Source: Nostoc punctiforme PCC 73102
GTDB taxonomy: Bacteria > Cyanobacteriota > Cyanobacteriia > Cyanobacteriales > Nostocaceae
Direction of reading: 5' to 3'
DNA: 32,000 nucleotides
Assembly (NCBI RefSeq): GCF_000020025.1
Contig: NC_010628.1
Coordinates: 1,620,001 to 1,652,000, forward strand
A program made the translations under genes and the position numbers. This document shows, one piece after another, positions 1 to 25,494 of this stretch (the stretch's first letter is position 1; every line of letters begins with the position of its first letter). The notes under the pieces were generated by a model. It was not told the DNA's origin. It did no database searches and saw only the letters and a program-made list of their open reading frames with translations.

Positions 1-119
1 CCGAGGAATTCTAGGCGTTCATTATGTTCGCCTTCTCCGGGGTTCTCATGGACATAAGAACGGTGAGTAAGTGCGTGGCGTAGAAGTTTTTCATTATGGA
101 ATATTAGAATTTTGTGCAT
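1..119 (-). CDS. rnc: Ribonuclease III, N-terminal ~39 codons only (gene runs off the left edge)
   Basis: Not in the ORF track. The reverse-strand ATG at 119..117 translates to MHKILIFHNEKLLRHALTHRSYVHENPGEGEHNERLEFLG. This carries the RNase III signature region (ALTHRSY ... NERLEFLG[D]). Confidence 0.75.
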   Translation of the reverse strand, partial: MHKILIFHNEKLLRHALTHRSYVHENPGEGEHNERLEFL

Positions 120-219
120 TTTTCTCTTGTGTTTTGTTGCAGAAATTGACTGTTGGGAAACTTGACAAGTGTTATTTTATTGAGACATGAAAAAAACCGC
201 AAATCGCGGCGTGTTGCTA

Positions 220-247
220 AAACCCAGTTGAATAGAAAACTGGGTTT
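220..247 (-). terminator. Possible hairpin terminator downstream of the NYN-domain gene
   Basis: Inverted repeat aaacccagtt (220..229) / aactgggttt (238..247) lies 13 nt past the stop of the minus-strand gene. The U-tail on the minus strand is weak (TTTAG). Confidence 0.4.
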
Positions 248-259
248 TTCAAAGTTATA

Positions 260-1111
260 TTAGGCAGCCGTATCTAAATCAGTTAAAAATAACTTCTGAT
301 TTTGCTTTTGAACTTTGCCATCCTTGACAGCAACATCAATAAACTGGCTAAAACTTTTAAATTTCTTGCCATCATCTGTACAAATAGATAAATATCCTTG
401 ATAGTTAGCACAACGTTGACGCATCAATCTATCAATGCGACCAAATACAGTAGGCTTACCTTGCATTGAGGCAATTTTGATAGCTTCAATTAAATACTCT
501 ATAGCCTCTTTGTAATTAATCTGAGACACAATATCTGTGTTTTGAGGTTGAGTCTTATTGGTATTGGCAACTAGCTGAGGTAATTCATCTACAAAATGGA
601 AGTTATCATTACCAACCAGTTTAATCAACTTTGGACTCTCACTACCTCGTTGAGCAAAAATTTTCACCTTTTTACCCAAACTTTTGAGAATACAAATTAA
701 ACCGGCATAGTCCCAGTCTCCTGAAAGTAAGATAATTGTTGTCAGAGAAGGATTAAAGGCAACTGCTTTAACACAGTCAGCCATCAATCGATAATCTGCA
801 CTATTATTTGAATGATCGGGAACATCAACACACTTGATCCCAAGAATTTCTAGCTCATTTTTAGTACAAACTTGGTTTATATAGTGTGAATTATAGTAGA
901 CATTTTTGCAGTCTATACGCCCTTTGGATTGGGCAAATTCTAGCAAAAAATGACCTTTTCCTTTAATTAAAGAGACGTTCTGAATATCGGCAAAAATACC
1001 GACATAATTTTTCTGCTGGCTTGTTTGTTTTTTGGAAGATTGATCGGAATGTGGCATTGTAATGTATCCAGTATTGTTTAGTGAACTGGACAGATTTAAC
1101 AAATTACACAT
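260..1111 (-). CDS. NYN-domain (LabA/limkain-b1-type) putative RNase with a C-terminal OST-HTH/LOTUS-like domain
   Basis: N-terminal half has the NYN pattern (NYVGIFADIQNV ... LLSGDWDYAGLICILKSLGKKVKIF). C-terminal ~70 aa (INYKEAIEYLIEAIK...GRIDRLMRQRCANYQGY...FSQFIDVAV) resembles OST-HTH/LOTUS. The true start may be the MPHSDQ methionine at 1057. Confidence 0.8.
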   Translation of the reverse strand: MCNLLNLSSSLNNTGYITMPHSDQSSKKQTSQQKNYVGIFADIQNVSLIKGKGHFLLEFAQSKGRIDCKNVYYNSHYINQVCTKNELEILGIKCVDVPDHSNNSADYRLMADCVKAVAFNPSLTTIILLSGDWDYAGLICILKSLGKKVKIFAQRGSESPKLIKLVGNDNFHFVDELPQLVANTNKTQPQNTDIVSQINYKEAIEYLIEAIKIASMQGKPTVFGRIDRLMRQRCANYQGYLSICTDDGKKFKSFSQFIDVAVKDGKVQKQNQKLFLTDLDTAA

Positions 1112-6283: not shown

Positions 6284-6357
6284 AGATAGAAACTTTGGAA
6301 ACTTAGTGGAAACATGGAAACAGGTGATTGACATGCCAGTTTGGTGGGTGTCACACT
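6284..6357 (+). promoter_or_regulatory. Candidate promoter/operator of the three-gene operon
   Basis: Three exact direct repeats of TGGAAAC (6296..6302, 6307..6313, 6315..6321) plus a degenerate TAGAAAC (6286..6292). They sit immediately upstream of a perfect -35 hexamer TTGACA (6328..6333). The only -10 candidate is weak (cacact at 6352..6357, 18-nt spacer). A strong SD AGGAGG lies at 6368..6373. Confidence 0.3.
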
Positions 6358-6380
6358 TCTGCTAAACAGGAGGGTGAACA

Positions 6381-7688
6381 ATGAAAATCACCAAACACCG
6401 ACAAAAAATTCTCGATGCACTTCAGCAATGGTTTAGTACCCATAAACAAGGGCCAACTCTAGAAGAGCTATGTCAAGAACTCGGAATGCAACCACGTCAG
6501 AAAGCAACAGTTCAGAAGTGGTTGCAAACTATGCGCGATATAGACGTGGAATGGGATGACCACAGCGCCCGCAGTCTTCGCCTCCTTACATCTGAACCGG
6601 AAAAACCTTCCTTACAGCTATCTGTAACTGACACTCTGCGGTATTTAGCTACTGGTGTGGTGCAGTGGGAAAAACTTGAGCTAGAAAAGCGAAGTCAAGT
6701 ACCAGAAGCCCTTCGCATTGGAATGTCCCGTATGTACTTAACTTCTTTACTACGGGGAGAACAAGCCCCAGAGAACCTACCACAATTTTTTGATTGGGCG
6801 GAAACATCAATTACTTCTTGGAAACCAGCCCAAGAGATTAAATATCTTTCGCCAGATGTCAGCGTTATAGAAGACGGAGTAGTTTCCGATTTTGCAAGAG
6901 AATGGCAAGTTTCAGGTAATGATGTGGTGGCGCAGGTACAAGAGTCAGTACTGAAAGATGTACTGGAATACTGTCGGGGAAATCAGCTAGAAGATGCTTA
7001 TCGCGCTTTTCGACTACTAATCATTTCTAAACCCACTCTTCATTACTCAGAATATCGGCAACAGCTACGTTTACCAGAACTCAAACCACTGCGGGAGTTA
7101 TTGTCACGGTTAGAAATCTATGTCGATATGGATAAGTTGGCAGAGGGCAGCGTTTATCATCTGTGTCCGCGTTGCACATACTTGCAACGCCAACGCCCTG
7201 ATGGTACATATACCTGCCGTAACCCTTGGTGTGAAAGACTTTGTGCAACCAGCAACTTTCAACCATTGCCACCTATTTCTAAAGAAAAAGCAGCAGACTG
7301 GAAAGCTGTTACCCCTGGTGTGCATTTGTACGGTACGCTTCCAGGAATTTGGGAAATTCAACTTCAAGAAGAACTTACAAAATTGGGTTTGCGCGTTACT
7401 CTCTGGCCTTTTGTCGATGAATTTGACTTACTCGTAGAGTTCCCACCGAAAGTTCGCTGGGCAATTGATTTTAAAGATTGGGCATCCGTGGATGAAGAAC
7501 GTTTGCGAAAGGTGCAGTATCGGCGTGATGCAACGGAAACTTTTGTAGTTTTTCCAGATGAACGCGAAGACTATTTGCGGATAAAGGTAGTGCGCGAACA
7601 ACTAGAACCTGAACTTGAAGGGGTGCGCTTGCGCTTATTTAGCGAAATCATCACTCAGGCTCAAGCAATTTTAGGGAAGAAAAAATAA
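6381..7688 (+). CDS. Operon gene 1: LexA-like wHTH + zinc ribbon + PD-(D/E)xK restriction-endonuclease-fold protein (candidate pPIWI-RE-associated REase)
   Basis: N-terminus aligns by eye with the LexA DNA-binding domain (KHRQKILDALQQWFSTHKQGPTLEELCQELGM..ATVQKWLQTM...ARSLRLL). CxxC...CxxxxC zinc ribbon (CPRC..TCRNPWCERLC, 7164..7244). Nuclease core E..(IWEIQLQEE) ... D346/D349 (VDEFDLLVEF, 7413..7429) ... D363-F-K365 (AIDFK, 7467..7475). Confidence 0.7.
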   Translation: MKITKHRQKILDALQQWFSTHKQGPTLEELCQELGMQPRQKATVQKWLQTMRDIDVEWDDHSARSLRLLTSEPEKPSLQLSVTDTLRYLATGVVQWEKLELEKRSQVPEALRIGMSRMYLTSLLRGEQAPENLPQFFDWAETSITSWKPAQEIKYLSPDVSVIEDGVVSDFAREWQVSGNDVVAQVQESVLKDVLEYCRGNQLEDAYRAFRLLIISKPTLHYSEYRQQLRLPELKPLRELLSRLEIYVDMDKLAEGSVYHLCPRCTYLQRQRPDGTYTCRNPWCERLCATSNFQPLPPISKEKAADWKAVTPGVHLYGTLPGIWEIQLQEELTKLGLRVTLWPFVDEFDLLVEFPPKVRWAIDFKDWASVDEERLRKVQYRRDATETFVVFPDEREDYLRIKVVREQLEPELEGVRLRLFSEIITQAQAILGKKK

Positions 7689-10600
7689 TGCGTGACACCA
7701 TTAGCTGGCGCAAGGATCTGTGTAAAAAACTCCGCAACTCGGATGAATTACAACAGCATACAGTATCTAGTTTAGTTAACGCAGATACCAAGGTACAACA
7801 GCGAGAACTTAAGCGTCTTGCCCAACTCATTGCTGATGTGGAATTGGGATTAACCCTACTTAAAGAAGTAGCACCAGAAGAACCTGCAACTTCTGTGGAA
7901 GCCTTGCTCAAAGGATATCGTTTTCCAGTTGAACAACTACAAAGCGATCGCAACTGGCAACTTATACAAAATGCTCGTTTCTATTTGATTAAGCGTAAAG
8001 GCAGACAATGGCTGCGAGTTCTTCAGGAGTACATCAACTTACCTGAAATTATTAGAATCTACTGCCTTGAGGAGGCAAGGAATGTTCCTCAACCTATTCC
8101 ATCCAGTACCTACCCAACTCGTTTAGAGAATATATATCTTCCAACTTTATTAAAAACCCCACAGCATAGACAACGAAAAGTTAAATTAGCAGATGAGGGG
8201 CGGTGGTATGCCAAGATTTCCCAAAAAGGTAACTCTCCAGTTGAGGTTCCTATTGATATTCCCAAGGAAGTTGCTAATATAGCACCTTCGTCTGTAGTAT
8301 CCCTTTGTCGCACACGGACTAAGCAGAATCCACAGTGTAGCGTTACCCGTGAAGAATTAATACTAGCTGCCCAAGAAATGGACGATAAATTGTCCCAATT
8401 TGGGCAACAAGAAAATTATCGTAACCGCTTGGAAAATATCCTCTTCCAGCTATACGATGCTGAATCAGATAATTTCCAGCAAGGTAATCAGCTAACTTTA
8501 GAAGGTCTTATCCACATTGTCGGGCTTTTGAATGTGGGTAAGTCTACCCTGTTGGAAATTATGATTTACTTCTTCGCTAAACAGGGAGATCGCTGTGGGT
8601 TGATGGTGAATGATGTTGCTACAGCAGTGCGCCTCGCTTCTTTGTTCTGCCACAAATTAGGAATTCCTGCTGCACCAGTGTTGGGTAGTAAACGCCAAGA
8701 GCAACTGGCAAAAGTCTACGAACCTATTCTCAAAAGTGAGGGTAAGGAAATTACTAAGGGAGGGATGCATCCTGCATGGCGTTGGTTTAGTCGAGTCTGC
8801 CCACTTTTAGCTTTAGTGCAATCAGAAGATAAGTGGGAATTTGGCAATGAACCTTGTCACAAGCTTTATCAAAAAGTTCTTGTAGCTGATAATGATGATT
8901 CTGATGATGAAGACTGGCAGGAAAGTGATGAAAAATACACTTGTCCCTGTTATTACAAATGTCCACGTCACCATTTAGAAGACGATATTGCTACAGCTTC
9001 AGTATGGATTTTCACCCCTGCTAGTTTCATTCATACTCGTGTACCCCGCCAGGGATTTGAACAAGACTTGACTTTTGCTGAGGCTGTTTATCGAGAATGT
9101 AAATATCTATTTGTTGACGAAGCCGATCGCGTGCAGATTCAGTTTGACGAAGAGTTTGCCCCTGATGAAGTCTTAGTCGATGGTTCTGGAAACTCATTTT
9201 TAAATAAACTCGGACTTAACCTGGCGACAATTTACAATTCCGATCGCGGTGATATGGCAGGCGATCGCTTTCTTGGTTGGACAAGCGCACATTACCATAC
9301 CCAAAATGCTACTAACCGCATCTATCACCTACTCCTCACCCACTCAAAATTGGTTGCGTGGTTGGGGCCACTTCCCTTTACAGGTCGTTCTCTATTTGCT
9401 CGGATTATCCGTGACCTAGTTGATCCGCCTGAGATTCCTGTCTCAGCGAAACCGAAACTAACTCACCAACAAATCATGGAAGAACGGCGTAAACGCATCA
9501 TTGAAGCAGACTTAGCTCCCACAGAGCAACGTCGCCGCCGCAAACAAATGATGGATCAACTAGATGGATTTTTACAACATCCGCTCAATCCCCGTCGTGG
9601 TGGTGAACTTTCAGGTTTGGCGTTGACAATACTAACTGCGGAAGATGACCGTCAAGCCTTAGCTGAAATTGCTCCTTGGTGCAAAAGATGGATAGAAATC
9701 CATAATCTTTCCCTACCAGATGAAACTCAATTTGAGAAACTAACCCGAAATCTCCAATTTGCGATTTTAGTCACCATACTCGACAACCGGCTTGGTTTTA
9801 TAGTTGATAATCTGAGCGACCTCGGTCGCGTAATTAACTTACACGATTCAAGCCAAGACCTTTTACATCGTCCACCGGATGACTTCCTCCCAGTTTTACC
9901 AGAATCGCCAGTGGGAAATATTCTAGGTTTTTTGTATAAGCAAGAACGTAGTGCTAAACAAGCTGGCAAGTTAGACTATTTTCGCTATGTGGGTGTAGGT
10001 CGTGCGTTACTGTTAAATTTCCCAAAACTGTTTGCAGTTGACGATTGGCAGGGCCCACATACTGTTTTGATATCAGGTACTAGCTACGCTCCAGGTTCGC
10101 CAGCCTATCACATCAACATAAAACCCACTATATTGTTGCAATCTAGAACTGGTGAGGCAGGTATAGCTGAAAGTCAGTTTTTCTTTAGTCCCAAACAGAA
10201 TCCGCAAGCCAACTATATTGCTTTATCAGGATTACCACCTGCAAAACGCAAACTTGCTGCTAAAGAAATGGTGGAGGCTATGTGCTACTCGGTAAGAGGT
10301 GGAGAGAGTTTTCTAGATGGCGTATTTGAGGATTTAGAACAGCGAAAACAACAGCAAACAGAATGGTGGAGCGATCGCGATCGCATCTTGATTGTCGTGG
10401 GTAGCTACGATGAATCCGAATGGGTCACGTCTATCTTACAATCGCGCTACCGTTTCGACGTAAACATCAACGATGACGGTATTGCCACCCTCCGCCGTGA
10501 CAATGCTCCTACTCATCTTCATGGGATTCTGCGAAGCGAAATCAGGAATTTACAACATTTACCTACCCAAATTGTAGTTGCTCCTTTGATGGCTTTAGAG

Positions 10601-11164
10601 CGGGGTCACAACATCTTGAATGCTCAAGGTAAAGCTGCATTTGGTGCAGTGCTGTTCCTCAACAGACCTATGCCAGTACCTGATAACTGGCAATCTACTG
10701 TTCAGCAACTCAACGCTTGGGCGCTGAAACACGAAAAAGATTCCACTCTTTATGAAGAAGCTCAATCAATATCGGGGAACCTAACCCTAACTCAGATTGC
10801 AGATATTTTCTACCAGAATGCTGTTGCCGAGATGGTCAACTTGAACTATACGGCGTGGGCTTTTAAGCAACTAACACAAGGAGAGCGATCGGTACTTTGC
10901 TGGACTCAGTTAGTGAGTATCTGGCAAATCATCGGGCGTTTAGTGCGTGGTGGAGTACCAGCAGTAGTCCATTTTATAGATGTGAAATTCGCGCCAAATT
11001 CAGCCATTGGCGAACAAGACAGCGAAATTACTTCACTTTTGGTTGCCATCATCAAGGTGCTGGAACCCTATGTAGAAGGTGAGGATGTGCTGGCGCGATC
11101 GCTCTATGGAGCTTTTTTGAATGCGTTGAAACAAATGAGAGAAAGAAACTTAAACTATGACTAA
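7688..11164 (+). CDS. Operon gene 2: large SF2 helicase of the DinG/XPD (Rad3) type with long N-terminal extension
   Basis: Walker A GLLNVGKST (about 8522..8548). Walker B/DEAD box LFVDEAD (9113..9127). Motif V-like ALERGHNI...AVLFLNRPMPVPDN. Motif VI QIIGRLVR (10925..10948) followed by VVHFIDVKF, as in DinG (QxxGRLIR...vllD.R). Cys cluster between Walker A and B (RVCP.., EPCH.., YTCPCYYKCP at 8935..8975). The start overlaps the gene 1 stop (TAATG). Confidence 0.8.
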   Translation: MRDTISWRKDLCKKLRNSDELQQHTVSSLVNADTKVQQRELKRLAQLIADVELGLTLLKEVAPEEPATSVEALLKGYRFPVEQLQSDRNWQLIQNARFYLIKRKGRQWLRVLQEYINLPEIIRIYCLEEARNVPQPIPSSTYPTRLENIYLPTLLKTPQHRQRKVKLADEGRWYAKISQKGNSPVEVPIDIPKEVANIAPSSVVSLCRTRTKQNPQCSVTREELILAAQEMDDKLSQFGQQENYRNRLENILFQLYDAESDNFQQGNQLTLEGLIHIVGLLNVGKSTLLEIMIYFFAKQGDRCGLMVNDVATAVRLASLFCHKLGIPAAPVLGSKRQEQLAKVYEPILKSEGKEITKGGMHPAWRWFSRVCPLLALVQSEDKWEFGNEPCHKLYQKVLVADNDDSDDEDWQESDEKYTCPCYYKCPRHHLEDDIATASVWIFTPASFIHTRVPRQGFEQDLTFAEAVYRECKYLFVDEADRVQIQFDEEFAPDEVLVDGSGNSFLNKLGLNLATIYNSDRGDMAGDRFLGWTSAHYHTQNATNRIYHLLLTHSKLVAWLGPLPFTGRSLFARIIRDLVDPPEIPVSAKPKLTHQQIMEERRKRIIEADLAPTEQRRRRKQMMDQLDGFLQHPLNPRRGGELSGLALTILTAEDDRQALAEIAPWCKRWIEIHNLSLPDETQFEKLTRNLQFAILVTILDNRLGFIVDNLSDLGRVINLHDSSQDLLHRPPDDFLPVLPESPVGNILGFLYKQERSAKQAGKLDYFRYVGVGRALLLNFPKLFAVDDWQGPHTVLISGTSYAPGSPAYHINIKPTILLQSRTGEAGIAESQFFFSPKQNPQANYIALSGLPPAKRKLAAKEMVEAMCYSVRGGESFLDGVFEDLEQRKQQQTEWWSDRDRILIVVGSYDESEWVTSILQSRYRFDVNINDDGIATLRRDNAPTHLHGILRSEIRNLQHLPTQIVVAPLMALERGHNILNAQGKAAFGAVLFLNRPMPVPDNWQSTVQQLNAWALKHEKDSTLYEEAQSISGNLTLTQIADIFYQNAVAEMVNLNYTAWAFKQLTQGERSVLCWTQLVSIWQIIGRLVRGGVPAVVHFIDVKFAPNSAIGEQDSEITSLLVAIIKVLEPYVEGEDVLARSLYGAFLNALKQMRERNLNYD

Positions 11165-13916
11165 AATTATTCTTCCTGGTGCTTGGGAACTTACTGCAAC
11201 AAATCCAACATACAAACTCTCTGCAATCTATGTCCCTATTACATGGCGACAAGTCGCCAACAACCTTGCTCAACAGCGTGCCAGACTCCAAGGTAAAAGT
11301 TATCGGGCTGTACCAGTTTATTCCCTCGACCCCCTGGTAGTTGGTAGTTTTCCCAAAATTATCAAGACTTTGCGTAATGGCTGGCAAAAAAGCAGTTTAC
11401 CTTGGCTGTTAGCAACAGAAACCACAGACATTTCTGACTTAGGTAACTTGATCAAAGATTGGTTAATAGAAGAATTTAGTACCTTGGAGGATGTTGAGTC
11501 ACAACTTGCAAATTTGAATAATGCTGATTGGCAATGGAGTAATTCACAGACCTATGAATTACTACATCCTCAAAACAAAGTCGAAATAAGCAACCTTTAC
11601 CAAGCAATTCCAGATTACCTTGCTGAGAAGTTTCTCCAAAAACCAACAGTTTACTTTGGTCTTGATGAGCAGTATGAACTGACATTTTACCGAGTAGTCA
11701 GCCTCCAAGGCGCTGAGTTGATGTCATGGCCTCCCAGTGAAGTTACGGTAACAAAAGGAAAGGACACAACAGAAACAGCATACATCTCATTTGTCATTGA
11801 GTTTGTTTTGCAAACCTTTCCCTGGCGCGAAAAACCTATTGTTTATCATCATTTATCAATTCGACGTTGGCTGACAAAACCTTTGAATTATGTACCTTAT
11901 CCAGGCGTGAAAGCTCATATTGGTGATAACCGTCGGTGGTTAGATGGTCAACGCCAACCCTTTTGCTTTATTCCACTAACGATGAAGGGTTATGGAAGGG
12001 AAGTGAAATGGCCTCAAGCCATCAGCAATCTTTTTTCTCTCAATGACTCTCAACTTCCTGACGCAAATAATTTCGTTTCTAACCCAAATCATAACTGGTC
12101 AGGTTTCAACACAATTCCTAGTGGTATCCAAGCTGCGATCGCCTACACTTCTAAATTAGGAGAACCACCCTGCTTTGCTGGTGTCAGTCCACAAGATTTG
12201 GCTAGTTTAGATCAAGCTATTGAAGCACGTCTCCCTGTTCAGAGAGTGGGTGAGGCTGAGAGGGTGACAGGTAACATTTTTATTTTCTGGCCTTTAGAGA
12301 AACCCAAACAGAAAATTGTTCCTCTCCTTGCTGACGAAGATATCCAATCTCCCAAGCCAAAAAAAGCCAAGAAATCTGACAATCCAAATCATTCACACAC
12401 CCCAATGCTGCGACCAAAACTAGCAGCACCAGCAGTATTTCGTGAAGCTGAAAATCCTCTTCGCACCATACTTATTTTGTGGGAAACTCCACAATGTCGT
12501 AATGCACTGATTGCTGAGATTTGCCAGCTACTGTATTTATCACCCACAAAAGTAGAAAATATTTATCAAGGTTTCTACGGTTCTCTGTGTATCAAGACTC
12601 AACATGTTGGCGACCTTACACAAGACCTAGAAATTCAACATTTTTCTGAAGCAAGGAAAACTTATCAACAGCAACGTCCTAATTTATTAGTAGAACGCAT
12701 TAATCAAATCACCGCGTTTCTACCCCCAACTAAAGAACTAAGTGGGGCATTAATCGAAATTAGACCGAAACCTCGTAGATCCGAGACTGATCCCAAGTTG
12801 GCGTGGCGAATTGGAGCAATGAAGGCAGGCTATCTCAATCAACACATTCACCGAATAACCACCGAAAATGATGCAAAAAAACTGAAGAAATCCGGTTTGG
12901 AACCAGTAAAACGAGCAGTGTCAGACTTACTAAGACAATTTGGGATTTTACCTGATACACCTTTAATTAATCCCAAAAAAGATGGCATTGAGCCTGATGT
13001 TTGGTTAACGTGCTTTTATGTCCTACGCCGCACCCGCAAAACAAATGTCGAAAACATTCCCAAAACTGTTGTTTTGATGATCAGAGTTAATCCAATAACA
13101 GCTAAAGTAGAGTTAACAACCCCTGATTTATTTAAAGAACAAGGCTGGATATCATATCCTGTTGGACTCGCGCATCTTCTTGATGAAGACTGGGATTCTA
13201 ACTCTTATGATGAAAGTAATGAAGAGCTTGATGATGAACAAAAAAGCAAAGAAAAAACGAAAGAACAAAGGCTAATCAATAAATTCGTTGCTGAATGTTT
13301 ACAAGAGTGTTTAAATACTCCAATTACTGATAATAAACCCCCGCGTGTACTGTTCATGGCAGAGGCACTAAATGCCCGCAAAATGCTGAACTGGCTACAA
13401 AACCAAAATTTACTAACTAATGACCCACTGCAAGCATTAAAACAGTACCTTTCACAAGAACAAATCAATCGTCTGTGGGTTGTGCGCTTACGAATTGCAG
13501 ATACTGGTGAAGTACCAGCTGCTATTGTTAAAGATTCTCCTGGGAGTCGAACCAGTGGTGTTTACCGATGGCAGGGTGTGTGTGATGATGAGGAGCGATC
13601 GCTCTACCTGAGCGTTAGAAAGGCGTTGTATACTGAACGAGGCACAACAATATTACAAAAAAATCAGTCTCGCCTTGACAATGGCAGCAGGCAAGCTGGA
13701 AGAGCCAGAATCTTAGAAATAGCCTTGATTCATCACCCAGAAATCAAGGGCGACAAGCTAGCTCACTTTGTTCACTCTCTCAGAAGTCGCTGGCCTTATT
13801 TTGCAAATGACGTTTCCCTGCCTTTGCCTTTTCCCTTTGCAATCAAGGCTAAAGAGTATGCTATCAGTACTAAAGATCCAGTGGAATCGTCAGTCTCTGA
13901 GGATTCCAATTTTTAA
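11157..13916 (+). CDS. Operon gene 3: 919-aa protein, candidate prokaryotic PIWI-RE (pPIWI-RE) Argonaute-like protein
   Basis: The 8-nt overlap with gene 2 indicates translational coupling. Size and operon context (REase - DinG helicase - large protein) fit the pPIWI-RE module. The C-terminal ~190 aa has an RNase-H/PIWI-like strand pattern: RVLFMAEAL, LWVVRLRIADTGEVP (compare Argonaute 'RDGVSE'), ILEIALIHH, and a terminal SLPLPFPFAIKAKEYA (compare the PxPxxYAxxLA end of PIWI domains). The assignment is by eye only. Confidence 0.6.
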   Translation: MTKIILPGAWELTATNPTYKLSAIYVPITWRQVANNLAQQRARLQGKSYRAVPVYSLDPLVVGSFPKIIKTLRNGWQKSSLPWLLATETTDISDLGNLIKDWLIEEFSTLEDVESQLANLNNADWQWSNSQTYELLHPQNKVEISNLYQAIPDYLAEKFLQKPTVYFGLDEQYELTFYRVVSLQGAELMSWPPSEVTVTKGKDTTETAYISFVIEFVLQTFPWREKPIVYHHLSIRRWLTKPLNYVPYPGVKAHIGDNRRWLDGQRQPFCFIPLTMKGYGREVKWPQAISNLFSLNDSQLPDANNFVSNPNHNWSGFNTIPSGIQAAIAYTSKLGEPPCFAGVSPQDLASLDQAIEARLPVQRVGEAERVTGNIFIFWPLEKPKQKIVPLLADEDIQSPKPKKAKKSDNPNHSHTPMLRPKLAAPAVFREAENPLRTILILWETPQCRNALIAEICQLLYLSPTKVENIYQGFYGSLCIKTQHVGDLTQDLEIQHFSEARKTYQQQRPNLLVERINQITAFLPPTKELSGALIEIRPKPRRSETDPKLAWRIGAMKAGYLNQHIHRITTENDAKKLKKSGLEPVKRAVSDLLRQFGILPDTPLINPKKDGIEPDVWLTCFYVLRRTRKTNVENIPKTVVLMIRVNPITAKVELTTPDLFKEQGWISYPVGLAHLLDEDWDSNSYDESNEELDDEQKSKEKTKEQRLINKFVAECLQECLNTPITDNKPPRVLFMAEALNARKMLNWLQNQNLLTNDPLQALKQYLSQEQINRLWVVRLRIADTGEVPAAIVKDSPGSRTSGVYRWQGVCDDEERSLYLSVRKALYTERGTTILQKNQSRLDNGSRQAGRARILEIALIHHPEIKGDKLAHFVHSLRSRWPYFANDVSLPLPFPFAIKAKEYAISTKDPVESSVSEDSNF

Positions 13917-15188: not shown

Positions 15189-16311
15189 ATGGATGTCTTA
15201 GAACTCAAACGCGAAATCGAAACGTTGTCTGGCCGCCTGGGTAAAACCCAGGACTATCTTTGACGTACCTGCACTGGCAGCCAAAATTCAAGACCTCGAA
15301 AAAATATCAGCTCAACCAGAATTTTGGGATAACCAAACCCAAGCCCAACAAACGCTACAAGAACTCAACGACCTGAAAGCCCACCTCCAGCAATACGATC
15401 GCTGGCACGCCAATCTCGAAGATACTAAGGCAGTTGTTGAATTGTTGGAGTTAGAAACCGATGAGGCACTACTCCAAGAAGCAGAATCTACCATCACTAA
15501 ACTGAATCGTGATCTGGATCAGTGGGAGTTACAACAGTTACTTTCCGGCCCCTATGATGCGGAAGGCGCTGTACTGACGATTAGTGCTGGTGCTGGTGGC
15601 ACAGATGCTCAGGACTGGGCATTTATGCTGATGCGGATGTACACCCGTTGGGGCGAAGCTCACGGCTATAAGGTAACTTTAGCTGAAGAGTCGGAGGGTG
15701 ATGAAGCCGGAATTAAATCGGCAACCCTAGAAATTACTGGTCGCTATGCCTATGGTTACTTGCGTTCAGAGATGGGTACACATCGCTTAGTGCGGATTTC
15801 ACCTTTTAATGCCAACGGCAAACGACAAACCAGTTTTGCAGGGGTGGAAGTGATGCCGCAGATTGATAACTCTGTGCAATTGGAGATTCCAGATAAGGAT
15901 TTGGAAATCACCACAACTCGTTCTGGTGGTAAAGGTGGGCAAAACGTCAACAAAGTAGAAACTGCGGTGCGGATTGTTCACATTCCTACTGGTCTTGCCG
16001 TGCGCTGTACAGAAGAGCGATCGCAGTTGCAAAATAAAGAAAAAGCCCTAAATCGTCTCAAAGCAAAGCTGTTGGTCATCGCCAAAGAGCAACGCGCCCA
16101 AGAAATTGCCGAGATTCGTGGCGATATGGTGGAAGCCTCCTGGGGAAACCAAATCCGTAACTATGTGTTTCACCCTTACCAAATGGTGAAAGATTTACGT
16201 ACAAATACAGAAACAACGGCGATTGGCGATGTGATGAATGGCGAACTCGATCCATTCATTCAAGCTTATTTGCGTCAAGAAAACAAATTAGTAGAAAACA
16301 CTAACTCATAA
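15189..16311 (+). CDS. prfB: Peptide chain release factor 2, requiring a programmed +1 frameshift at 15258..15264
   Basis: Frame 0 ATG at 15189 gives [24 protein letters not shown], then in-frame TGA (15261..15263). The +1 frame from GAC at 15262 continues [25 protein letters not shown]... into the track ORF 15442..16311. That ORF contains the SPF motif (RISPFN) and the GGQ motif ([16 protein letters not shown]). Confidence 0.92.
15250..15264 (+). promoter_or_regulatory. prfB autoregulatory +1 frameshift site (SD-like AGGA, slippery CTT TGA C)
   Basis: The sequence c-AGGA-c-TAT-CTT-TGA-C matches the E. coli-type prfB recoding cassette (internal SD-like element, CUU UGA C). Confidence 0.85.
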
Positions 16312-23624: not shown

Positions 23625-24212
23625 TCAAGAACAACCCTCAACAAATTCAACTTCTGGTAGTTTACCTGAGCGAAACTGAGTGACACGCTTACCGTCAGTC
23701 TCGAATACCACACGATAATTCTGATTAGAACGGTCTTTCGGGATAAATGTCAAGTAGTGTCCGCCTTGGACATATTTATGAGGTGTGACTTTAATTTGTC
23801 CCGGGTAGAGAGACTTGATTTGCGCTTCGGTGTCGCCAATTTTTCCACCTTTAAGGGTAGTAATTTGGGTATTCTGCCGCACATCTACTCTAGAAATGCG
23901 ACCTTTTGTAACCATAAATAAAAGATTTTTGGGTTCGTTTTGTGGCTTAACATAGTAGCAACTGTTATTCGGCGAATCTCCCGCTAGCTTAGTACCAGCA
24001 GCTTTTGCCGCTTGGGAAACAGTCATCCCAACTTTTACCTCTCCGATACCATTGATGGACAATTTCGATTTATTTGTCAGTTTCGCCTGTGCTACAACTG
24101 TACTGACACTTAGAAAAGAAACTGCCAACGTTAAGGAAGCAAGAGTCAATAATTTAGCTTTATTATTCATAAATTGTGGAAATAAAAGCGGGTAGATATT
24201 TATATACAGCAT
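23625..24212 (-). CDS. Hypothetical secreted/periplasmic protein
   Basis: Signal peptide if started at M15 (position 24170): MNNKAKLLTLASLTLAVSFLSVSTVVAQA. No recognisable catalytic motif. Only 22 nt downstream of the ARH gene on the same strand. Confidence 0.6.
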   Translation of the reverse strand: MLYINIYPLLFPQFMNNKAKLLTLASLTLAVSFLSVSTVVAQAKLTNKSKLSINGIGEVKVGMTVSQAAKAAGTKLAGDSPNNSCYYVKPQNEPKNLLFMVTKGRISRVDVRQNTQITTLKGGKIGDTEAQIKSLYPGQIKVTPHKYVQGGHYLTFIPKDRSNQNYRVVFETDGKRVTQFRSGKLPEVEFVEGCS

Positions 24213-24234: not shown

Positions 24235-25494
24235 TCAAGTTGTTGATTGGCGAAATTCTGCTATTACTTCGATCAAACCAACGATATTACGGTTGAATTC
24301 AGGTAAATCTTCCGCAGGTATCCAATATTCCTGATGTATGGAACCGCCTACAGTTTTTACGGAGTAGCGGCTTAAAAACTCTGCACGCACCTGAAAACGT
24401 GTCACATAGCCGATATATCCTGTGTCAGTACTTGCCGCATTCCAGTTACGGGCAATTTGTGCGGCGTATTCTTCGTTAAGTACCGGGTAGAAAATAGGCT
24501 GTTCAGGTAATCGTGGAGGAAATTCACTATCGCCACTTTCTTTAATCAAAGCCAGTTCTTTTGGCCCAGTGGGACGGAAAAGAGTGATTGTTTCTCGATC
24601 GCCCTTGGGCAAAGGTTCTCGTGCTTGCACCCATGCCGTGGGAATACCTTCTACACCTGTAGATACCGCCACAATACCACCCGCGATCGCACAAGTAGTA
24701 TCTCTATCTCCCAAGCCACTTACAGTTAACCACAGAGCTTCTTCGTAGTTGTCAAGATGTTGGGCAGCACACCATAGTGCAAAGGGGACTGTATCTTGTG
24801 CTGAGACATGAGTGCCATTTCCTAAGATTGCCGCTGCTAATTGCACTGATGTGTTTTCCGACAAATTCACAGCCTGATGAATTTTTGCACTTACCTCACT
24901 TTCTGGAACATAAGGTAAGACAAGGTTGAGAAAATCTTCTTTGCTGGGTAAAGAATCTTTGAGTCTCCACGCCCAAGCAGCAGCAACTGCTACGGCAATT
25001 GCATCTGCGATCGCTTCTGGATGAGTGTGAGTGATTTCGGCGCTGGCTTGTGCTTGCTTGACAACTAAATCCAAATCTTCGGCAAAGAACGCCCCTATCG
25101 GTGCAACGCGCATTGCTGCTCCATTTCCATAAGAACCTTGTCCGTTGAACAGACTACTTGCCAATTTCTGCCAAGATTCGCCATTGCATATTTGCGTTAA
25201 CAGCCTGTGCATCGCTGCACCATAACCCCGTTGGCTATCGTATTGTTTGGCAAAGCTTTGTGCCAGATAATCTTGGTTAATTTCCCCGTATTCTTGGAGA
25301 GTTGACACAATTTAGAGCGCCATCTGGGTATCGTCAGTGTAGTACCAAGGTGATGCAGGGATAGCACGGCTAACAATCAGACTTTCCACCACATCTGGAT
25401 GCAGAAAAAATCGCTCTCCAAAAGCATCACCCACTGATAAACCTTCAAGGGAGGATTGAGCGCGAAGCAGGCGAAGATCGTTAGTTGTTGACAT
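24235..25494 (-). pseudogene. ADP-ribosylglycohydrolase (ARH/DraG family) fused to an uncharacterised ~120-aa C-terminal domain, interrupted by an in-frame TAA
   Basis: ORF 25312..25494 (..GLSVGDAFGERFF..YYTDDTQMAL*) and ORF 24235..25308 are in the same frame, separated only by TAA (25312..25314) plus one codon. Joined, they give a normal ARH N-terminus (GDAxG, TDDTQM) and late motif (GDRDTTCAIAGG). The C-terminal domain is FRPTGPKELALIKESG..FPPRLPEQPIFYPVLNEEYA..IARNWN...YWIPAEDLPEFNRNIVG. Confidence 0.75.

Follow-up and report, generated by a model that had tools for sequence, protein, structure and literature searches.

What might an Argonaute-like protein do for a bacterium if it probably cannot cut nucleic acid itself and is encoded directly behind a nuclease and a helicase? 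The question is raised by a three-gene locus of the cyanobacterium Nostoc punctiforme PCC 73102, which occupies positions 6381–13916 of a 32,000-nucleotide stretch of its genome (NC_010628.1, positions 1,620,001–1,652,000, forward strand; hereafter the window, whose own numbering we use throughout). A first-pass annotation, made from the letters of this window, recognized in the locus the content and order of the PIWI-RE module, namely a restriction endonuclease (REase), a DinG-like helicase and a PIWI-like protein. Pfam, PADLOC, structure models and synteny all bear out this assignment. The operon is a pPIWI-RE REase/DinG-like helicase/PIWI-RE system, and it is co-inherited as a unit.

The 2013 description by Burroughs, Iyer and Aravind (PMC3702460) gives the gene order of the module as REase, DinG-clade helicase and pPIWI-RE, with overlapping gene termini. 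According to the same work, the first gene consists of a helical domain, a Zn-ribbon and the REase, sometimes with a LexA-type helix-turn-helix (HTH), and only a subset of pPIWI-RE members keeps the catalytic residues. Huang et al. (2022; PMC10991935) purified PsPIWI-RE, encoded in a three-gene cluster of Pseudomonas stutzeri, and found it to cleave DNA with RNA guides and RNA with DNA guides. The substitutions D525A and D610A kill cleavage and R639A and E718A do not; the P. stutzeri knockout has a raised sensitivity to ciprofloxacin and shows a cell-division effect (PMC10991935). Because of that work, the first-pass statement that no member of the family had been characterized biochemically is out of date.

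PADLOC files PIWI-RE systems under prokaryotic Argonaute (pAgo) type III (PMC11333966), and in NCBI the Nostoc orthologues already carry the name 'pPIWI_RE module domain-containing protein'; a 2026 Argonaute review leaves the family unmentioned. Given the 2013 description, the PADLOC detection, the NCBI naming and the 2022 biochemistry, the novelty of the operon as a system was overstated; it belongs, clearly but unremarkably, to a module that is already catalogued. The points added here are the L623 site in the PIWI domain, an analogy to the DdmDE system, a conserved repeat-bearing promoter, and a fixed genomic site at which deletions occur.

A three-gene PIWI-RE operon

The window's open reading frame (ORF) list reproduces the coordinates of three packed plus-strand ORFs of 435, 1158 and 919 amino acids (genes 1–3; Table 1). 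The junctions first annotated are likewise present: TAATG at 7686–7690 joins the gene 1 stop to the gene 2 start with a 1-nt overlap, genes 2 and 3 share the 8 nt ATGACTAA (11157–11164), and the Shine-Dalgarno sequence AGGAGG precedes gene 1. GGAG-type sequences occupy the equivalent position in most aligned cyanobacterial loci. These ORFs are real genes, with Pfam E-values reaching 3e-96 and ratios of nonsynonymous to synonymous substitution rates (dN/dS) of 0.09–0.27 among orthologues.

The further claim that the 7.5 kb contain no hairpin terminator stands only loosely. Two weak terminator-like sites lie within the operon on the plus strand, at 9358 and 10371, and the region has 10 such sites where 9.1 are expected, a chance-level count. 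What the terminator scan flagged as a hairpin at 10371–10384, inside gene 2, is a pair of overlapping HIP1 palindromes (GCGATCGCGATCGC). The scan found no convincing intrinsic terminator after gene 3 (z = 0.6). Because both junctions overlap and the order gene 1–gene 2–gene 3 is intact in most cyanobacterial loci that could be judged (see below), the best explanation of the trio is one translationally coupled operon, transcribed from a conserved promoter.

Membership in the PIWI-RE family follows from Pfam and PADLOC matches to all six or seven domains that lie far above the cut-offs. The Pfam families that had been anticipated were all hit (pPIWI_RE_REase, pPIWI_RE_Y, pPIWI_RE_Z, pPIWI_RE_X, MID_pPIWI_RE and RNaseH_pPIWI_RE; Table 1). 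A DEAD/DinG helicase family had also been anticipated in gene 2; Pfam returned no helicase family there even at E <= 10, and PADLOC supplied the match in the form of PprDinG (2.8e-148). Together with PprRE in gene 1 (2.9e-27) and PprPIWI in gene 3 (8.3e-142), this leads PADLOC to detect the locus as 'argonaute type III'.

All five hallmarks of pPIWI-RE systems are present, namely the PIWI models, the conserved arginine/glutamate (R/E) pair, an REase accompanied by a helical domain and a Zn-ribbon, a Cys-rich helicase of the DinG clade, and strict gene order. Compared with the three-gene pPIWI-RE system, the Nostoc operon matches in order, in overlaps and in the Y, Zn-ribbon and REase domains with a LexA-type HTH. 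It shares as well the Z domain, the Cys-rich iron-sulphur (FeS) region, the R/E pair and the X, MID and RNase H domains of the PIWI protein; there is no difference in kind. Two properties, the fixed Nostoc site and the GGAAAC-repeat promoter, are absent from the retrieved passages of PMC3702460 and, relative to these, are specific to the clade.

Folds were assigned for genes 2 and 3 only, by searching AlphaFold2 (AF2) models against the PDB with Foldseek. The PDB yielded no sequence relative for any of the three proteins, nor for a gene 2 profile, so the fold assignments rest on AF2 and Foldseek; no member of the family appears to have a solved structure.

An altered catalytic site in the PIWI domain

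Gene 3 had been credited with a PIWI/RNase H-like C terminus, in agreement with its RNaseH_pPIWI_RE match, and structure modelling recovers an MID-PIWI (RNase H) fold of the Argonaute superfamily. Foldseek returned 97 PDB matches at E <= 1e-3 for the gene 3 model, with E-values down to 9e-9, and the top 50 are full-length Argonaute/PIWI proteins only, each at probability 1.00. The template-modelling (TM) scores of these searches are low (0.2–0.36), and the model itself is mediocre, with a predicted local distance difference test (pLDDT) score of 62 that falls below 50 in the C-terminal PIWI half.

To compare catalytic sites, we aligned the gene 3 protein with PsPIWI-RE, as translated from the supplement of its paper, and with 110 relatives, 112 sequences in all. 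R777 of gene 3 corresponds to R639 of PsPIWI-RE, and E854 to E718; the first column holds R in 101 of the 112 sequences and the second holds E in 107. This eponymous pair is also invariant in a further alignment of gene 3 homologues. The catalytic D525 of PsPIWI-RE aligns without gaps to L623, in a column where I, V and L account for 100/112 sequences and no Asp occurs besides that of PsPIWI-RE. E736 of gene 3 adjoins D610 of PsPIWI-RE, and equating the two as the second acidic position needs a shift of one residue. Judged from the alignment, gene 3 does not have the site of a catalytically active Argonaute/PIWI slicer. With L623 in place of the first catalytic Asp, and R777 and E854 kept, its PIWI domain is probably non-catalytic, sensing rather than cutting. 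In the MID domain, residues D545, K547, R551, Y559, N561 and Q562 are invariant in 20 gene 3 homologues.

PsPIWI-RE, from P. stutzeri DSM 4166, is of one family with the gene 3 protein and comes from a cluster of like type, in which dinG overlaps piwi-re by 4 nt. At 783 residues it is shorter than the gene 3 protein, and identity between the two is only about 25%. PsPIWI-RE keeps D525/D610 and cuts single-stranded DNA with RNA guides, whereas gene 3 has L623/E736 at these positions and so is probably not a nuclease itself.

The helicase and nuclease partners

Gene 2 contains the Walker A, VDEAD and QIIGRLVR motifs in the DinG/XPD-like layout that was originally read from it, and the core residues of its helicase motifs are invariant in 26 homologues. 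Four invariant Cys residues (C371, C390, C419 and C425) lie between Walker A and the DEAD box, the position given for the iron-binding Cys-rich region of the DinG clade in PMC3702460. The AF2 model of gene 2 (pLDDT 75.5, predicted TM score 0.75) finds E. coli DinG as its best Foldseek match (6fwr, 7e-9), followed by CasDinG, DdmD and XPD; DdmD chains stand at ranks 7–18. Neither Pfam nor PADLOC detected a nuclease domain in gene 2. D1098-x-K1100 was entertained as a hidden nuclease motif and dropped, as it belongs to what we take to be the usual XPD/DinG helicase strand after motif VI.

The nuclease of gene 1 looks intact by its residues. The PD-(D/E)xK core first read as D346/D349...D363-F-K365 resides in the motifs VDEFD (D346, D349) and IDFK (D363, K365), and these residues, together with E325 and the Zn-ribbon cysteines C262, C265, C279 and C284, are at least 97% conserved among 55 gene 1 homologues. 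The N-terminal LexA-type HTH draws weak matches (TIGR00498, 1.9e-5; PF01726, 0.027; PDB 1lea, 0.81).

A conserved promoter and candidate operator

Directly 5' of the -35 hexamer of a promoter-like element upstream of gene 1 stand four direct repeats with the consensus TGGAAACATTGGAAACATTATnGAAACATTGAAAAA (Table 1). A block of three to four GGAAAC repeats plus promoter (window 6284–6357) is present in all 20 of the diverse cyanobacterial loci aligned, among which gene 1 protein identity descends to 53–56% and genomic contexts differ. Across these 20 loci, the G, A, A and C positions of the repeats are invariant or nearly so, TTGAC is at least 90% conserved and TGnCAGAAT is conserved, most other loci having CAGAAT as their -10; the rest of the intergenic region is unalignable. 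The paired repeat motif occurs a single time in the window. The -10 hexamer is weak in N. punctiforme, which explains why a generic promoter scan missed the element.

The HTH residues of gene 1 are as strongly conserved as the repeats, and both travel with the operon. On these grounds the LexA-type HTH probably autoregulates the operon through the GGAAAC repeats beside the -35, which we put forward as a candidate operator, HTH binding to it being inferred. When the HTH and the repeats were compared for covariation, two loci (L056 and L044) had GGCAAC for GGAAAC, in three repeats in L056, and T or S for R39, whereas L079 had E39 with unaltered repeats.

An old but dispensable operon

We compared 79 cyanobacterial loci (labelled with L-numbers), in 64 of which the upstream DNA reaches far enough for the trio to be judged. 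In 55 of these 64, plasmids and unrelated contexts included, all three genes are intact, share one strand and keep their order; the exceptions are insertions or deletions. Two of the refuting outcomes that the annotation had named, a gene 3 without a MID/PIWI fold and a trio that is not co-conserved, thus do not apply. The loci form two clades, a Nostoc-site type and a divergent type. About 27 genomes of Nostoc and its allies carry the operon at one site, in the order uma2, chlD, a sigma factor (minus strand), the trio, Bax1-I and prfB, and the closest orthologues are Nostoc proteins of 91–95% identity. The divergent clade, at 41–66% protein identity, occupies unrelated contexts, Calothrix plasmids among them; the plasmid-borne copies are L050 and L052. 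Both types occur in Nostoc sp. LEGE 12447 (L005 and L029). Of the two paralogous trios of this strain, the syntenic one is 91% identical to gene 3, and the other, located elsewhere, 54%.

The dN/dS values of the trio are 2–5 times those of the flanking genes (0.01–0.10), gene 3 being the fastest, and in dS the trio resembles its flanks. In GC (guanine-plus-cytosine) content and HIP1 density, the operon matches the genome; HIP1 octamers (GCGATCGC) number 31 in the window against 0.15 expected, and 7 of them fall in the operon. At the syntenic sigma-factor/Bax1-I site, the operon is deletion-decayed in four Nostoc lineages (L018, L020, L045 and L062), and the trio is incomplete in L041, L071 and L077 too. 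Taken together, the single fixed site, the dN/dS values, the GC and HIP1 match and the deletions at the site indicate that in Nostoc the operon is old, vertically inherited and under purifying selection, yet dispensable. Its faster dN/dS, the deletions at one site and the second paralogous copy mark it as accessory. Recent horizontal acquisition in the Nostoc clade was considered and rejected, since synteny, GC content, HIP1 density and dS all speak against it.

Several of the altered loci could be described individually. L045 has residues 1–143 of gene 1 fused to residues 1028–1158 of gene 2, and its gene 3 is without residues 161–389; in L018 the gene 2 N terminus is joined to the gene 3 C terminus (compare P0020, 1058 aa). 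Apparent frameshifts lie within gene 2 of L004 and L006. In L071/L072, from [Scytonema hofmanni] UTEX 2349, an insertion of ~750 bp (about 6582–7336 in locus numbering) splits gene 2, a stretch of ~210 bp (about 11263–11474, likewise) breaks gene 3, and partial copies of genes 1 and 2 are found close by in inverted orientation; these interruptions may reflect the insertion of a mobile element.

A proposed surveillance mechanism and its alternatives

By analogy, the closest functionally characterized counterpart of the trio is DdmDE of Vibrio cholerae, a plasmid-defence system (Loeff et al. 2024, bioRxiv 10.1101/2024.05.10.593530) in which a helicase-nuclease of 5'-3' polarity is brought to plasmid DNA by a pAgo that is itself inactive (PMC13618286). 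Common to DdmDE and the Nostoc trio are an Argonaute that is inactive, by prediction in the Nostoc case, an XPD/DinG-type helicase and a PD-(D/E)xK nuclease. They differ in that DdmD fuses helicase and nuclease, whereas in Nostoc these are separate genes with extra Y and Z domains, and in that DdmE, a pAgo of the short kind, carries an INS domain, whereas the Nostoc PIWI protein is long and of a different PIWI family. The trio thus has neither the fused DdmD nor the short, INS-bearing DdmE that would make it a DdmDE system, and the resemblance is structural and functional only. A second parallel is type IV-A CRISPR-Cas, where a guide-bearing, non-cleaving surveillance complex requires a DinG-family helicase; the CasDinG structures 8v44, 7xf1 and 8e2w are among the Foldseek matches of gene 2. 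Unlike type IV-A, the Nostoc system comes without a CRISPR array or Cas proteins, and has an Argonaute-like candidate guide carrier and a dedicated REase.

We propose that the gene 3 protein would bind a short nucleic-acid guide in its conserved MID pocket and, so loaded, recognize complementary invading nucleic acid, which may be DNA of a plasmid or phage, or else a hybrid of RNA and DNA. Probably unable to cut, it would pass the target to the gene 2 product, a predicted 5'-3' FeS helicase of DinG/XPD type, for unwinding or translocation, and the PD-(D/E)xK nuclease of gene 1 would then cut the DNA. The whole would amount to a split-subunit analogue of DdmE plus DdmD. For the core of this proposal, a relay from guide-loaded, non-cleaving PIWI-RE to helicase to REase that acts on invaders, we see the case as evenly balanced, though it is the likeliest of the readings considered. 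The fuller picture, in which a self-regulated (HTH plus GGAAAC) three-protein surveillance machine with a dead, guide-loaded PIWI-RE is the split-subunit counterpart of DdmDE in cyanobacteria, is more tentative, and we hold it with some doubt.

Several points weigh against this relay. The call of an inactive PIWI domain comes from a sequence alignment, and the gene 3 model is of moderate quality. The HTH-repeat link is not clean, as L079 has E39 yet keeps GGAAAC. The locus sits among housekeeping genes (chlD, the sigma factor, Bax1-I and prfB) rather than within a defence island or mobile element, and its GC content and HIP1 density are genome-like. In the literature searched we found no published defence by any three-gene PIWI-RE system, which agrees with the first-pass remark that no member had been shown to protect a cell. 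The sole reported in vivo phenotype, that of ciprofloxacin sensitivity and cell division in P. stutzeri, points to chromosome maintenance.

Maintenance instead of immunity is the alternative that survives best. The trio would then help the chromosome through trouble in replication or transcription, such as R-loops, decatenation or the termination of replication, a role put forward for PsPIWI-RE and for some pAgos. Such a role fits the one sigma-factor/Bax1-I site held in about 27 genomes, the flank-like dS, the purifying selection and the host-like composition, and gene 2 finds its best structural match in E. coli DinG. It sits badly with a patchy distribution, with plasmid copies, unrelated contexts and a second divergent copy in one genome, and with the large deletions that four Nostoc lineages show at the syntenic site and evolution faster than that of the neighbours. 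An REase without obvious self-protection is also hard to square with routine action on the host chromosome, and we consider maintenance unlikely.

The original Burroughs model dispenses with a guide and relies on structure: PIWI-RE would sense the RNA-DNA hybrids (R-loops) of an invader in transcription or replication, and unwinding would fall to DinG and cutting to the REase. PMC3702460, the source of this model, states that E. coli DinG acts on R-loops, and with a probably inactive PIWI here binding would be the protein's only function. What makes guide-independent sensing quite unlikely is that the invariant MID residues argue for anchoring of a 5' guide end, that PsPIWI-RE takes short guides in vitro (PMC10991935), and that every characterized Argonaute system, DdmDE included, is guide-dependent. 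Abortive infection, in which recognition would free the REase, with or without the helicase, on all cell DNA and cause death or arrest as in long-B pAgo-nuclease or SPARDA-like systems, is very unlikely, because a processive DdmD/CasDinG-like helicase partner fits targeted degradation better than collateral killing and Pfam and PADLOC detected no oligomerization or toxin-type domain, even if an inactive PIWI beside a separate PD-(D/E)xK nuclease recalls the effectors of long-B and short pAgo systems, which work by abortive infection (PMC11333966, PMC13618286).

Features of the locus and its neighbours

Table 1. Features of the PIWI-RE operon and its upstream region, in window coordinates
Feature	Residues	Nucleotides	Strand	Detail
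Direct repeats (A/G)GAAAC, four		6288–6321 (starts 6288, 6297, 6308, 6316)	+	Candidate operator
Promoter-like element		6328–6357	+	TTGACA 6328–6333, 18-nt spacer, TG 6349–6350, CACACT 6352–6357
Shine-Dalgarno AGGAGG		6368–6373	+	7 nt ahead of gene 1 ATG
Gene 1	435 aa	6381–7688	+	pPIWI_RE_REase-type nuclease
LexA-type winged HTH, gene 1	2–85	6384–6635	+	Weak profile matches
pPIWI_RE_Y helical domain, gene 1	86–220		+	Pfam 9.5e-17
Zn-ribbon, gene 1	C262/C265/C279/C284	7164–7232	+	Four conserved Cys
pPIWI_RE_REase PD-(D/E)xK domain, gene 1	322–434	7344–7682	+	Pfam 1.9e-22
Gene 2	1158 aa	7688–11164	+	DinG/XPD-like superfamily 2 (SF2) helicase
pPIWI_RE_Z domain, gene 2	44–196		+	Pfam 3.7e-24
Walker A GLLNVGKST, gene 2	279–287	8522–8548	+	Core residues invariant
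Four invariant Cys, gene 2	C371, C390, C419, C425	8798–8962	+	Putative 4Fe-4S site
VDEAD, gene 2	476–480	9113–9127	+	DEAD box
Motif VI QIIGRLVR, gene 2	1080–1087	10925–10948	+	
Gene 3	919 aa	11157–13916	+	pPIWI-RE, Argonaute-like
pPIWI_RE_X, gene 3	9–425		+	Pfam 3e-96, 323 bits (cut-off 30.5)
MID_pPIWI_RE, gene 3	472–601	12570–12959	+	Pfam 1.4e-27, 97 bits (cut-off 26.6)
RNaseH_pPIWI_RE, gene 3	618–903	13008–13865	+	Pfam 3.8e-53, 182 bits (cut-off 25)

Elsewhere in the window, prfB (release factor 2; 15190–16311) shows the canonical programmed +1 frameshift: its ORF0 stops at CTT TGA C (15258–15264) and the main frame runs to 16311. Two small nuclease-like genes on the minus strand lie 5' of chlD. 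The first (1591–2019) matches a CRISPR-associated PD_DExK protein in PADLOC (3e-48) and nothing in Pfam, and the second (2241–2828) is a Uma2/PDC-S03 candidate-defence protein (5e-19). A gene of the ADP-ribosylglycohydrolase family (24235–25308, minus strand) adjoins a 195-aa ORF (23625–24212, minus strand) that has no Pfam or PADLOC match. The window yielded no Rfam families or tRNAs, and nothing in it suggested a mobile-element or tRNA integration site.

Significance

PIWI-RE is the one major branch of the prokaryotic Argonautes for which we found no report of an in vivo role or mechanism of the three-gene system. The N. punctiforme locus brings no new kind of system to this branch; its value is that of a possible test case, with natural deletion variants at one site, a defined candidate operator for expression control, and a predicted sensor-only PIWI that separates target recognition from cleavage. 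Some Nostoc strains are genetically tractable, and if this host is as well, work on the system in the cell it comes from would be possible. Should a DdmDE-like handover from the PIWI protein to the helicase and nuclease prove true, the pairing of Argonaute, helicase and nuclease would have evolved at least twice. If the reading of the trio as a split-subunit surveillance system is correct, it would give this PIWI family, uncharacterized as a system since 2013, its first in vivo function.

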